Assembly (NCBI RefSeq): GCF_004010195.1
Contig: NC_057749.1
Span: forward strand, 9,512,646-9,576,645
Direction of reading: 5' to 3'
DNA length: 64,000 bases
Source: Chiloscyllium plagiosum
Taxonomy: Eukaryota
The translations under genes and the position numbers were made by a program. Positions 3,608 through 54,650 of the stretch are shown here, in pieces; the first letter of the stretch is position 1; every line of letters begins with the position of its first letter. A model generated the notes under the pieces. It was not told where the DNA came from. It ran no database searches and was given only the letters and a program-made list of their open reading frames with translations.

Positions 3608-3868
3608 CTGGAAAAGATCAGTAAAGATTCACAAATTAGTTGTTGGTTTTTGGACCAGAAGCATGACAAAGACAATACCTCCCTCTATTCCACTCACCAG
3701 GATTGGCAACATGTCCTCTGTGCAAGGTTAGGATTGAATCTGTTTGGATGAACATCCTCTTGAAGACAATGCATATGGTCAAATAACAAAGTAAACACAT
3801 TTGTAGAGAGCTGGCAAATATGTTTTATGCAAAGGAGTCATGATTGATAGTTGTAGTTGTCAAATTAT

Positions 3869-4165
3869 AGAATCCCTACTGTGTGGAGGCAGGCCATTTG
3901 GCCCATTGAGTCCATACCAACCCTTTCAAGAGCATCTTCTCCAGATCAACTCCCCTACTCTTTCGCTATAAGCATGTATTTCCCATGACCAATCCACCTA
4001 GCCATCTTTGGACTGTGGGAGGAAACCGGAGCACCCAGAGGAAACCCACACAAACACAGGGAGAATATGTAAACTCCACACAACTACACAGTTGCCCAAG
4101 GAGGTAGAATCGAATCCAGGTCCCGAGCACTGTGAGGCAGCAGCGCTAACCACTGAGCCACTATG
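3869..4165 (-). mobile_element. HE1-type tRNA-derived V-SINE
   Basis: Reverse complement of tggctcagtggttagc..ctgctgcctcacag, central tgtggagttt..attctccc, CR1-like tail. Confidence 0.85.
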
Positions 4166-29462: not shown

Positions 29463-30922
29463 TCCTTGACTCAAGCAACAAATGCAAGCACGAAAACAAA
29501 AATAAGGAAAGGTTGAGGCTGGCAGATAGTAGAGAATGGAGTCAATCAAATTATCTGGGTCATTGATATAAATTGTAAAAGATTGAAGTCACAGCACAGA
29601 TCCTGTGTGGGACTTCACTTGCTGCATCCTGCCAATTAGGTAAGAACCGATTTATGCAACTCTGTTTTTGCCAGGTTGACAATTTTCGATCTATACTAAC
29701 ACATTACCCACTACATCATGCACTTTTACAATGACCTTCAATTTGGCATCTTTCAAAAATCGAAGTACATCTCCTCTTTATCTACACCACATGTTACCCC
29801 CTTCAAAGAAGTTTAATAAATTGGTTGAACATGATACCATGCTGACTCTTCCTGATTATATTGAGTTCTAAATGTGCAGCTATAATCGCTTTAATCATTG
29901 ATTTGAACACCTTTCTCTTGAAAGGCTTCAAGCTGATTGGCCTATCGTCTCCTGTTATCTGTCTTCTTTGCTTCTTAATTAGCAGAATTAGTTTTGCTAA
30001 TTTTCAGTCAGGCAATCTGGCAAATTAACACTAATTCATCTACTACCTCATTAGCAACCTCCTTTATGACCCGAGGACAAAGTCCATTAGAACCCAGAGA
30101 CTTAAAAACCTGCAGCTCCATCAGTTTGCTTTGTGCCATTTCCCTAGTGACTGTAATTTCACTAAGTTGCTCTCTCTCTTCCACCTCCTGATTTACAGCT
30201 GTAACTGGAATGTATATTGTATCCTCTATAGTGAAGACAGAAGCAAAATATTTGTTCATTTTGTCATCAATTACCTTATTATCTACTATTAACTCTCCAT
30301 TCTCATTCTGTAGAAGACCAACGTTCACATTATTTACCCTTTTTCTTTTCTAATACCTGTAAAATTCTTCTGTTTTTACATGCAAAGCTGGACTCCTCTC
30401 TGAGAAGCCATCTAAACTCGGAATATTAGCTTGCTTTCTCTGCATGGACGCTGCCTGACTCACTGTGATCTCCAACATTTTTTGTTTTCAGTGCATTCTT
30501 CTCATGCTTGAATTTCTTCTTCCTAATTAATCTTGTCATTCTCTGCTGTTCTTCATACTTGAGCCAATAATCTGACCTCCCACTCATCGATGCTCAGTTG
30601 TACATTTTTTTCTTTGAGTTTTGATGTTTACCTGAACTTCTCTAGTTAGTGGGTCCTCTCTTTAGAATTTTTCTTTATAGCAGGAAGATATTTATTCTGA
30701 AAGTATCCCCTCAAATGTCTGCCACTGCGTCTCTGTTGATCTATCCCCCAGTCTAGCACACTATCTTAGGTCATCTAGCTCAGCTTCATGCCAACAGAGT
30801 TACCTTTAAGGTTAAAATACTGATCTTAGACTTGATTTGGAGATGCCGGTGTTGGACTGGGATGCACAAAGTTAAAAATCACACAACACCAGGTTATAGT
30901 CCAACAGGTTTAATTGGAAGCA

Positions 30923-30957
30923 CACTAGCTTTCGGAGCGACGCTCCTTCATCAGGTG
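30923..30957 (-). ncRNA. Minimal type I hammerhead ribozyme motif, intact core
   Basis: Minus strand: cac CTGATGA a ggagc gtc gctcc GAAA gc TA gtg. Stem I cac/gtg, perfect 5-bp stem II, palindromic AGCT stem III. Confidence 0.8.
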
Positions 30958-30967
30958 ATCAGACAAT

Positions 30968-31002
30968 CACCTGATGAAAGAGCATCGCTCCGAAAGCTAG
31001 TG
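30968..31002 (+). ncRNA. Minimal type I hammerhead ribozyme motif
   Basis: Plus strand: cac CTGATGA a agagc atc gctcc GAAA gc TA gtg. One mismatch at the base of stem II. Confidence 0.72.
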
Positions 31003-31612
31003 TGCTTCCAATTAAACCTGTTGGACTATAACCTGGTGTTGTGTGATTTTTGATCTTAGACTAGTCTTCTCCCTTTTTAAATTGGATGAAAACTTCAATG
31101 ATATTATGGTTGCTGTGACCTAGGGGCATTTTGGCCTGGAGGTCATCAATTAATTCTGTCACATTACCAAGTCTAACACCATGTGCCCCGTAATTGGTTC
31201 AAGAATGTGCTGCTGTAAGGAACTATCTTGAAAGCAGTCTCCTCATCCAGGCGATTACTGTCAGTCTGATCTTTCCAGTATATACGTAGATTAAGAACAT
31301 CCATGTTTATTACCACCACTACTCAATATTTCTTATTATGTACTGTCTCCCACATTGTGGCTACTGTTAAGGGGACTGCATGCTATTGCCATTAATGACT
31401 TCTTTCCCCTGTCTTTCCTAATCTCCATCCAAACTGATTCTATGCCTTGATTGACTAAACGGAGGGCCAAATGCACAGAGTCCTGTGCTTTACTCGAGCA
31501 GTTTTATGATAATATGTTGCATCTAAAGTAAGAAGAGTACAAATGGGTCACAGTATCCCAATGAAAAGACTGTAGATGAGCAATACGTTATTAATAAAAT
31601 CCGCAATCTCAC

Positions 31613-45314: not shown

Positions 45315-45481
45315 NNNNNNNNNNNNNNNNNNNNNNNNNNNNNNNNNNNNNNNNNNNNNNNNNNNNNNNNNNNNNNNNNNNNNNNNNNNNNNNNNNNNNN
45401 NNNNNNNNNNNNNNNNNNNNNNNNNNNNNNNNNNNNNNNNNNNNNNNNNNNNNNNNNNNNNNNNNNNNNNNNNNNNNNNNN
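45315..45481. other. Assembly gap (167 N) inside the Penelope-like element
   Basis: Run of N. Confidence 1.
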
Positions 45482-52803: not shown

Positions 52804-52949
52804 ATGTGGAGGCACCGATGTTGGACTAGGGTGGACAAAATCAGAAGTCACATGACACCTGATTATAGTCCAACAGGTTTATCTGAAGTCATAAACAGAT
52901 TTCAAATAAACCTGTTGGTCTTTAACCTGGTGTTATATGACTTTTGAGG
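52804..52949. mobile_element. Palindromic element of the 30833 family lacking the central hammerhead
   Basis: Arms ttatagtccaacaggtttat and ataaacctgttggtctttaa. Flanked by a ttaatctaa duplication. Confidence 0.7.
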
Positions 52950-53169: not shown

Positions 53170-54650
53170 TGGCTGTTTTGAAGACAGATAGAGCCCTCGA
53201 TGAATACAAAGGTAGCAGGAAAGAACTCAAACAAGGAATTAGGAGGGCTAAGAGGGGTCTTAAAATGTCTTTGACAAACAGAATGAAGGAAAATCCCAAG
53301 GTGTTTTACACGCACATAAGGAGCAAGAGGGTAGTGAGGGAAAGGGTTGGTCCACTCAAGGACAAAAGGAGGGAATTTATGCGTGGAGCTGGAGGAAATG
53401 GGTGAGCTCTTTAACAAATACTTTGCATCTGTATTCACCAAAGAGAAAGACATGGTGGATGGCGAGTCTTGGGAGGGGTATGTTGATATTCTGGGTGATG
53501 TCAATATAAATAAGGAAGTAGCGTTGAGTATTTAAAAAGCATTAAGGTAGACTAGTCCCCTAGACCTGATGGGATCTATCCCACAATGCTGAGGGAGGCA
53601 GGAAAGGAGATTGCTGGGACCTTGTTCGAAATCTTTGTATCCGAAAGTCACAGGAGAGGTCCCAGAAAACCGCAAAATAGCCAACATTGTTCCTTTGTTT
53701 AATTAGGGCAACAGGGAAAATCTGGGAAATGAATCCAGTGAGCCCCTTCATCAGTGGTAGGGAAATTATTGGAGAAGATTCTTAGGAATAGGATATATTC
53801 ATAGTTGGAAAAATATGGACTTATTAGGGATAAGTGGCATGGCTTTGTGTGGGGAAGGTCGTGTCTCACAAATTTGATTAAGTTTTTTTGAGGAAATGAC
53901 AATGGGGAGTGATGGGAGCAGTAGATGCTGTCTACATGGACTTTAGCCATGCCTTTGACAAGATCCCTCATGGCAGGCTGATATGAAAGGTAAAGTCATT
54001 TGGGATCTTTGGTGAGCTGGTAAGATGGGAATAGAACTGGATTAGTCACAGAAGACAGAGCGTAGCAGTGGAAGGGTGTTTTATTGACTGGAGATCTATG
54101 ACCAGTGGTTTTCCACAGGGATCAGTGCTGGGACCCCTGTTGTTTGTAATATATACAAATGGAGGAGAATGTGGATCACCACCCTAGTAAATTTGTGGAT
54201 GAGCCAAAGATTGGAGGAGTTGCAGGTAGTGAGGAGGATTACCAGTGGATACAGTAGTAAGTGGCAATACAAGTGGATAAGGTGGTCAAGAAGGCATATT
54301 TTACATACTTGCATGTTAATGAAACAAAACCTGCAACCCATTCTGAAAGATGAAAGACTTAACAGCAATCTAGGTTTGTTCAATATATTGTTTCAGTTGC
54401 ATGACACTGTAATCTTTTGCTATAAATTCTATGTCTTACAATCCTGCTCCACAGCCACCTGTTGAAGGAGCAGCGCTCCAAAAACTAGTGCTTCCAAATA
54501 AACCTGTTTGACGATAACCTGGTGTTGTCTGATTTTTAAGTTTGTCCACCCCAGTCCAACACCGGCACCTCCACAAGAAGGCATATGTCACGCTTGCCTT
54601 CATCAGTCAGGACATACAGTATAAAAATTGACAAGTCATGTTGCAGCTGA
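53170..54650 (+). mobile_element. CR1 LINE ORF2 fragment ending about 40 bp from the exon 3 donor
   Basis: KENPKVFYTHIRSKRVVRERVGPLKD; LFNKYFASVFTKE; PQGSVLGPLLF-like segment. Confidence 0.88.
54300..54573 (+). mobile_element. PLE-derived insertion of the same family as 30833, hammerhead mutated
   Basis: cac CTGtTGA aggagcagcgctcc aAAA actagtg followed by the shared tail. 13-bp TSD caagaaggcatat at 54287-54299 and 54574-54586. Nested in a CR1. Confidence 0.8.

Follow-up and report, generated by a model that had tools for sequence, protein, structure and literature searches.

A 64,000-nt stretch of the Chiloscyllium plagiosum genome (contig NC_057749.1, positions 9,512,646 to 9,576,645 of the forward strand; hereafter the window) contains, at 30833-31050, a palindromic insertion of 218 bp with hammerhead ribozyme motifs on opposite strands. 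The question raised by this locus is how such a palindrome is made and whether it could spread by itself. A preliminary description, based on the letters of the window, proposed either an inverted terminus of a Penelope-like element (PLE), formed by template switching during insertion, or a self-propagating bidirectional unit. Our analysis favours an origin at insertion: the 218-bp unit probably represents two leader-only reverse transcripts joined head to head, and would therefore be a PLE insertion that was dead on arrival. The size of the family, the structure of its parent element, the variability of the junctions, the combination of two different outer ends in one insertion (the A+B rule) and the target duplications were all observed directly.

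The palindrome, its family and its parent element

A repeat search of the window identified inverted arms at 30874-30959 and 30966-31051, which are 86 nt long, 98% complementary and separated by 6 nt. Around the 218-bp unit, the 12-nt sequence TGATCTTAGACT is repeated exactly in direct orientation (30821-30832 and 31051-31062) as a target duplication, and a stretch of 41 nt on the left side (30833-30873) has no counterpart on the right. The arms of about 86 bp, the 41-nt extra tail and the 12-bp target-site duplication of the preliminary description were therefore all recovered. Its 6-nt spacer holds by arm symmetry but not by mapping on a copy of the parent element (locus L081, described below), in which the arms occupy 30833-30959 and 30963-31050 or 31051, leaving a filler of 3 nt, CAG. 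As judged from this mapping, the 6-nt spacer is merely a symmetry-based reading of the CAG junction. The T at 31051 can be assigned either to the second arm or to the target duplication. The features of the locus are listed here with their positions in the window.

30821-30832, no strand: left copy of the target-site duplication, TGATCTTAGACT, 12 bp, exact match to 31051-31062.
30833-30959, minus strand: arm A, antisense PLE leader from start site A inward to transcript position about +4, gapless alignment to L081 656-530.
30833-30863, minus strand: PLE tail of 31 nt, confined to arm A, AC-rich when read in sense, equal to L081 626-656 between sites B and A.
30923-30957, minus strand: hammerhead motif, consensus-like, CAC-CUGAUGA-A-GGAGC-GUC-GCUCC-GAAA-GCUA/GUG (slash, predicted cut), read from the sequence.
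30960-30962, no strand: junction filler CAG, from the mapping on L081 and junction comparison.
30963-31050, plus strand: arm B, sense PLE leader from +1 (the A of ACAATCACC) to site B (…GATTTTT), tail-less, gapless alignment to L081 527-615.
30968-31002, plus strand: hammerhead motif, decayed, stem II AGAGC/GCUCC, with A replacing G10.1, read from the sequence.
31011-31016, plus strand, with its mirror image at 30909-30914, minus strand: ATTAAA poly(A) signal of the leader, from the sequence and from poly(A) reads on the parent copy.
31051-31062, no strand: right copy of the target-site duplication, 12 bp, from the repeat search.

The unit belongs to a large family. The assembly searched comprises 3.56 Gb in 101,977 contigs. 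The 218-bp query gave 1593 candidates at first look, and all 40 of those scored matched it nearly end to end with 94-100% identity. An exact 29-mer from the arm was counted 25,643 times genome-wide (12,863 forward and 12,780 reverse), compared to 0 for the reversed control. As the family has many members, the 218-bp structure is far beyond chance. Among the first 100 matches of the arm 29-mer, on contig 1, 32 make up 16 pairs in the order minus, plus at a distance of 59-132 bp, six more pairs in this order lie 286-2499 bp apart, and there were no close pairs in the order plus, minus. All close pairs therefore face each other by their hammerhead ends, at variable spacing.

Two sets of copies were compared. 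The first consisted of 31 aligned copies, chosen as the most query-like matches; the second was an unselected sample of the first 40 arm sites in contig order (C1:2452746-2454005 omitted), mapped on L081:361-760. In this 40-site sample, 25 loci contain 27 adjacent inverted pairs and 13 arms are single, while one site has two antisense arms in direct order and another (L107) has, by eye, a 10-nt inverted piece of the tail abutting a sense arm.

At many loci the leader runs past the tail into ATG ACT ACT ATC (GAC…), and by using the tail-plus-ATG extension as query, copies were found that continue into a long open reading frame (ORF). The landmarks of one such parent copy, L081, are the following.

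L081 497-503: TATAAAT.
L081 526-535: CACAATCACC.
L081 535-541: CTGATGA.
L081, between 563 and 564: predicted ribozyme cut.
L081 575-580: ATTAAA.
L081 609-625: …GATTTTTAACTTTGTAC (site B).
L081 626-656: AC-rich tail.
L081 656-658: ATG.

The reverse transcriptase (RT) family RVT_1 (PF00078) was matched by Pfam on L081:1360-2940 (E 5.8e-8; 33.1 bits with a cut-off of 29.6) and on a second parent copy, L083 (E 1.8e-7); a third parent copy scores under the cut-off. Downstream of the RT in L081, a CX4CX2C linker and then a 'VYLILC…WYIGET…R…H' stretch, the presumed endonuclease, were recognised by eye. In the Atlas, 16 of the 30 nearest clusters of this presumed endonuclease have PF01541 on about one-third of their members, with a score of 0.96, which is a lead only. 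Pfam gave no real matches on the N-terminal pieces of the ORF. The ORF is flanked by direct repeats, the pseudo-long terminal repeats (pLTRs), as a promoter-hammerhead-leader module is present at about L081 400-656 and again at about 3780-4094, the second one lying after a CA-rich 3' region and stopping exactly at site A (…CCGAATC). By its domains and layout, the parent is read as having the pLTR-ORF-pLTR organisation of a PLE, with a presumed endonuclease.

The leader is far more abundant than the regions on either side of it. Exact 29-mers were counted 25,643 times for the leader, 2,510 times for the promoter region (36-64 nt upstream of the presumed start) and 31 times for the start of the ORF, the last ratio being rough because the ORF 29-mer contains CpGs and some ORF stretches read N. 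The depth of reads and contigs over L081 steps in parallel with these counts. At the 5' boundary, a G stands immediately before ACAATC or ACTATC in 13 of the 31 aligned copies, in the place of the C found in every parent copy read; L019, for example, reads ACTATCACC at its G-bearing start, and the same G occurs at the joins of direct tandem copies. In the window, G30962 stands directly 5' of ACAATCACC, where the parents carry C. Reverse transcription of a cap leaves an extra 5' G, and G30962 is possibly a copy of an RNA cap. With the extra G, and a TATA box about 30 nt upstream, the boundary resembles a transcription start. The window unit itself contains the leader only in both arms and the parental TATA box is absent, therefore it would be dead on arrival rather than self-propagating.

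Outer ends, junctions and the origin of the two arms

Start site A adjoins the ATG of the ORF, and site B is located 31-41 nt upstream of site A. In the 40-site sample, the outer ends of 23 of the 27 inverted pairs fall one at site A (L081 641-667) and one at site B (601-626), and there were no A+A or B+B pairs. The 31-nt tail is correspondingly present on exactly one arm in 23 of the 27 pairs and on both or neither in none. Among the remaining four pairs, one is interrupted by N, one has an intervening fragment with outermost arms that by eye end at A and B, and two belong to a complex locus that is duplicated, one arm being truncated at 577. Under an even and independent choice of site by each arm, 23 mixed pairs out of 23 would be expected with a probability of 0.5^23, about 1e-7 (4e-7 for the by-eye count of 25 out of 26). 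The outer end of arm A recurs in all 31 aligned copies. Single arms terminate at site A (10) or site B (3), and one of the single site-B arms (L091) has a 13-bp target duplication, indicating that both sites are real 3' ends. In the aligned set, exact repeats of 11-15 bp flank 25 of the 31 copies, compared to at most 7 bp in the shifted-boundary control.

Long inverted arms with a flanking duplication could also be explained by a DNA-level fold-back element or a miniature inverted-repeat transposable element moved by a transposase. We regard this as extremely unlikely. The duplications are not fixed but vary from 6 to 15 bp among copies, the outer ends vary by some nucleotides and are unequal, with an extra stretch of 31-41 nt on one of them, and the arms correspond to the leader of an element that encodes an RT. 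In addition, the leader unit also exists as single arms and in direct tandems: the pattern of a tail followed by a new unit start within 80 nt was found 29 times (control 0). The ends of the units in these direct tandems coincide with the start site on one side and with variable 3' points on the other, and not with the ribozyme cut.

The preliminary description had suggested comparing the inversion junctions of copies across the genome, with junctions in common pointing to a propagating unit and variable ones to inversion at each insertion. In both the 31 aligned copies and the 40-site sample, the junctions vary in length and letters, as expected if they are made per insertion. The inner ends of the arms are mostly at L081 522-541, with extremes at 566-569 (deep truncation) and at 365-411 (into the pLTR), and the junction fillers often repeat adjacent letters. 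With PLE-type parents, copy-specific junctions and an arm spacing from 59 to 132 bp, the proposal of an inverted PLE terminus made at insertion is supported.

Neither arm appears to be derived from the other. Of the 23 A+B pairs, the arm without a tail extends further 5' in 15, the tailed arm does so in 7, and the two are equal in 1; the tailed arm always bears 31-41 outer letters that are missing from its partner. The presence of 5' letters in the tail-less arm and of outer letters in the tailed arm indicates that mostly neither was copied from the other, and that they are two reverse transcripts. In the window unit, arm B has ACA and the extra G beyond the reach of arm A. The template switching of the preliminary description is therefore likely in the joining step, but not in the sense of one arm being simply a copy of the other.

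Several points weigh against this reading of the unit as two joined reverse transcripts of a PLE leader. The Pfam GIY-YIG model was unmatched at E<=1 on the presumed endonuclease region, L081:2826-3317, and the RT of the parent was assigned by its RVT_1 match rather than by placing its clade in a tree. The reads mapped on L081:300-1500 have no pile-up of molecule starts or ends, thus the start of transcription is deduced from the extra G and the TATA box. The leader and the start-site region are predicted to fold like their shuffled sequences (z = -0.96 and +0.42). The other points concern the relationship between the arms: junctions that are perfect palindromes with no filler exist in L028 and in the second unit of L094; rare variants are common to both arms of a copy more often than expected; and two copies have the same junction. 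Each of the last three can be read in favour of a different origin.

The first two could be explained by a snap-back, in which a single reverse transcript started at site A folds at the 5' end of the RNA and copies its own cDNA. This would produce filler-free perfect palindromes, and would account for the sharing of rare variants between arms (30, compared to 12.0 +/- 3.5 after shuffling, with a maximum of 22 in 500 shuffles) and, by slippage, for fillers repeating their neighbouring letters. The excess of variant sharing could also come from subfamily or time structure, and was therefore not used to decide. As a general route, the snap-back is contradicted by the 15 of 23 A+B pairs with 5'-terminal letters in the tail-less arm only. 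Moreover, it gives no reason for copying to stop inside the narrow range of site B (L081 611-626), which is itself the 3' end of single arms such as L091. For the window unit we therefore consider the snap-back unlikely.

The third point relates to the self-propagating unit, which would be transcribed from either strand and copied whole from palindromic masters. Two copies 390 kb apart, L004 (G000:C18:13433295-13433513) and L027 (G000:C18:13820723-13820941), have the same junction, GGTGATCAG joined to GACAATCACC, and two changes in the left arm only in common, although their flanks and target duplications differ (TTCACTCAATCT vs GTTGCCAGGGTT). They give the only hint of a finished palindrome being copied again; under a per-insertion origin they would have to be due to coincidence or to rare re-copying of a whole palindrome. 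A junction of GGTGAT with CACAATCACC is also common to 5 of the 31 aligned copies. However, simple shared junctions are expected from repeated run-off at one RNA end, and most junctions are specific to their copy, with paired arms at different spacings. There are also no fixed differences between left and right, the consensus arms being identical, the unit carries no parental TATA box, and the long-armed and triple arrangements of L102 and L034 show assembly at insertion. The idea of a self-propagating bidirectional unit is therefore mostly rejected, with L004 and L027 leaving room for rare re-copying, and we consider it very improbable as the origin of the window unit, even more so than the snap-back.

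Two other patterns were tried as evidence and set aside. In the first 31 copies, arm A stopped at 530 and arm B at 526/527; this pattern is absent from the unbiased 40 sites and is probably an effect of choosing the most query-like matches. A double change, …AAACTTATTGG…, was considered as a marker for one or two template RNAs. Its 29-mer has 30 exact matches, and in inverted pairs it is present in one arm at 7 sites and in both arms at 1. It was rejected, as it occurs on several subfamily backgrounds at a frequency similar to that of two independent transitions; it is probably a recurrent mutation and silent on the templates.

Returning to two joined reverse transcripts, the following course of events can be proposed. 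The template would be a short capped RNA from the pLTR, starting at the A of ACAATCACC about 30 nt past the TATA box, carrying the minimal hammerhead motif and extending into the 5' leader; it could come from full-length elements or from the commoner promoter-bearing fragments. The PLE enzyme would cut both target strands about 12 bp apart, and each strand would prime reverse transcription at one internal site, one at A and the other at B, a priming step that we infer from the anatomy of the copies and from published in vitro work. Both cDNAs would run to the 5' end of the RNA, which is only about 90-130 nt away, and a template jump from end to end would probably link them head to head, the variability of the junctions arising from fillers, slips and premature jumps. 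The resulting palindrome would bear the 31-nt tail on a single arm, be enclosed by the target duplication and lack its own promoter.

Hammerhead motif and putative poly(A) signal within the leader

The motif reads cac-CTGATGA-a-(stem II)-GAAA-GCTA-gtg and is mirrored on opposite strands, with CTGATGA at 30971-30977 (plus) and 30948-30954 (minus), then GAAA-GCUA, and a predicted cut after UA. Stem II is GGAGC/GCUCC on the minus strand and AGAGC/GCUCC on the plus strand, where the G10.1-C11.1 pair is lost; in the right arms of the 31 aligned copies, GGAG was found in 22, AGAG in 7 and other changes in 2. Both strand copies have an extra A in the motif, A15.1-G-C-U16.1 makes the self-complementary AGCU, and helix I has only three pairs (CAC/GUG) beside the core, as the RNA apparently begins 8-9 nt before the core. 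In L039, a compensatory-looking stem, GAAGC…CUUC, was noticed; this is anecdotal, as dispersed copies decay neutrally.

Rfam gave no match at the gathering score in the 64-kb window. At E<=10, the region 30700-31200 had 16 sub-gathering matches, none of them to hammerhead models, which in Rfam expect a closed helix III: 10 were to microRNA precursors, 4 to small nucleolar RNAs and 2 to bacterial small RNAs. Genes for any of these three classes in the unit were rejected, the below-threshold matches being caused by the long hairpin.

Raw reads of an RNA run with the same organism label (X21) and two contig sets were mapped on L081:300-1500, and the read ends of X21 do not accumulate at the predicted ribozyme cut. 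The two opposite-strand hammerheads of the preliminary description therefore stand as motifs, but their activity as ribozymes is put in doubt by the lack of an Rfam model match, the missing G10.1 of the plus copy, the three-pair helix I and the absence of this read pile-up. Arms that end right at the predicted cut are found at two of the 40 sites (L086 and L112). As the cut site is internal to both arms of the unit, the template RNAs were uncut. The hammerhead is thus a passenger, and any ribozyme activity had no part in shaping the copies. The RNA of the unit is predicted to form one long hairpin of -163.6 kcal/mol, compared to -51.3 +/- 4.6 for shuffled sequences (z = -24, with 0 out of 200 as stable). 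In a palindromic transcript this modelled hairpin would bury the hammerhead, which agrees with the earlier expectation that it would compete with ribozyme folding and could switch it off. The preliminary description also proposed the hairpin as a possible Dicer/ADAR substrate.

The minimal hammerhead ribozymes (min-HHRs) of metazoan PLEs have been described as having low in vitro activity and acting as dimers, and opposite-strand pairs of the motif at a distance of about 100-700 bp were already noted for them (Cervera & de la Pena 2014, PMC4209133). The motif resembles the min-HHRs in that text by its CUGAUGA…GAAA core with a U-H cleavage triplet, by G10.1-C11.1 (in the minus-strand copy) and by the palindromic AGCU in place of helix III, which points to a dimer as the acting form. 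It differs in helix I, with 4-5 pairs in min-HHRs vs 3 in our unit, and in helix II, with 7-8 pairs in the Schistosoma families vs 5 in our unit (PMC4209133). Unlike a min-HHR, the plus-strand copy in the window has no G10.1; the motif is a putative ribozyme.

The leader also carries a signal for the other end of an RNA. In X21, the depth is about 180-1230 over L081 300-668 (both mate orientations summed) and at most 7 from 669, a fall of more than 100-fold at the end of the tail. Reads on the promoter side are 5-10 times commoner in one mate orientation, while they are near-balanced over 587-668; reads joining opposite strands also exist, such as 17 that join L081 539 and 575. A total of 739 reads turn into poly(A) after L081 592 (339) and 595 (400), 12-15 nt past ATTAAA, and none of the genomic copies has a templated A-run at this place. 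The ATTAAA of the leader is followed by a GU-rich stretch (L081:575-595). It thus seems that the leader provides a poly(A) signal located 5' of sites A and B, which every palindrome carries in both orientations. With the poly(A) site about 30 nt past the ribozyme cut, and hence upstream of A and B, ordinary polyadenylated mRNAs would keep usable start sites in their 5' leader only. This suggests that the position of the poly(A) site may account for the dominance of leader-only copies.

Comparison with known systems and other copies

PLE insertions often contain an inverted 5'-truncated copy, and a tail of 30-40 bp at one end only (Craig et al. 2021, PMC8557442). The endonuclease-bearing PLEs of that text (Penelope/Poseidon, Neptune) have two pLTRs flanking the RT ORF as in our parent, and are also alike in the hammerhead motif in the pLTR, the inverted copy on the 5' side, the tail on one arm and the variable duplication; the CX4CX2C linker of the parent resembles, by eye, their Neptune/Nematis linker. 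The kind is therefore already known: PLE insertion units with an inverted copy, a tail and min-HHRs. Unlike the PLE units described in PMC8557442, both partners in this family are leader-only (about 90-130 nt) with one discrete start-like end, and this minimal leader-only form dominates the family. The dominance of leader-only copies, the discrete 5' end and the strict A+B pairing were not found in the passages covered of the PLE, hammerhead and retrozyme papers cited here.

In vitro, the Poseidon protein of Anolis carolinensis (PAc) cleaves the two strands of its target and extends each of them, initiating at two adjacent internal sites, the interval of which is the tail, on an uncut template RNA; a dimeric state is predicted for the protein (Frangieh et al. 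2024, PMC11167929). Our family is PAc-like in having two start sites downstream of the hammerhead, AT-rich targets and no read ends at the cut. In PAc, initiation occurs 111-118 nt into the ORF and the start codon is overlapped by the hammerhead (PMC11167929), whereas our parent has its hammerhead about 92 nt upstream of the ATG, which site A adjoins. No strand difference in the use of the start sites was reported there in vitro, whereas the two arms differ in 23 of 23 classifiable pairs of our family.

A more far-reaching reading, which we put forward as tentative and doubtful, is that the thousands of leader-only palindromes are an in vivo record of PLE integration, made by a dimeric particle for which abortive, leader-only copying is the default. 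A dimeric PLE particle would be assembled on the leader of one or two RNAs, with one subunit per start site, and the subunits at A and B would extend different target strands, resulting in A+B pairs only. If true, full-length transposition would be a rare exception that requires read-through, and the palindromes would plant a poly(A) signal in both orientations within host genes.

The integration of PLEs is still poorly known, and the family, as a large collection of completed insertions in a genome, is in agreement with the in vitro picture as described in the text of PMC11167929. The points added are that the arms of one insertion use different start sites, that the common template has a discrete, probably capped, 5' end, and that the ribozyme has no visible part in defining the ends. 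With tens of thousands of near-perfect hairpins, the family could also cause trouble in assembly and spurious microRNA or ribozyme calls, and the palindromes could possibly result in premature transcript ends in host genes.

Two further systems invite comparison. The non-LTR retrozymes are short non-coding repeats with a hammerhead that are akin to PLE pLTRs and presumably moved by PLEs; they form head-to-tail tandems, with circular RNAs presumed after self-cleavage, and dispersed monomers are common (Li et al. 2026, 10.64898/2026.07.22.740005). Unlike retrozymes, the window unit is head to head and its ends are away from the ribozyme cut. The terms 'palindrom' and 'head-to-head' are absent from the text of that preprint (10.64898/2026.07.22.740005).

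The second system is twin priming in human L1, in which a staggered break primes from both of its ends and leaves an inverted segment within one target duplication; as the second primer anneals within the same RNA the segments differ, so no palindrome is made. In our unit, unlike L1 twin priming, both segments span the same stretch.

Several copies show more complex arrangements. In L094 (G000:C1:2450880-2451600), an older palindrome carries another one in its tail-less arm, flanked by a separate short duplication, ACCTGGT; the family therefore inserts into its own copies. In L034 (G000:C2:46830337-46833426), a single target duplication, ATGTTTATTATG, encloses three units, in the order of an inverted tailed arm, a sense arm reaching about 70 nt into the ORF and a second sense arm, which looks like the product of serial template jumps during one insertion.

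The window contains other traces of the family. At 52808-52945 there is a second, older inverted pair, about 83% identical to the parent and flanked by TTAATCTAA repeats. One of its arms is tailed and the other tail-less, and after deep truncation the hammerhead motif is gone from both. An old single sense copy at 54340-54572 (about 82%) has a TATAAAT promoter region, the hammerhead motif and the tail. Positions 45315-45481 are a run of 167 N, and N likewise occur within or beside the PLE copies at L054, L082, L085 and L100. Among the sequencing runs listed as sharing words with the parent 5' region, none was on record as RNA. Beyond this genome, the runs X1-X20, which carry four organism codes, contain between one-fifth and one-half of the words sampled from that region, and the family is therefore common to related species.

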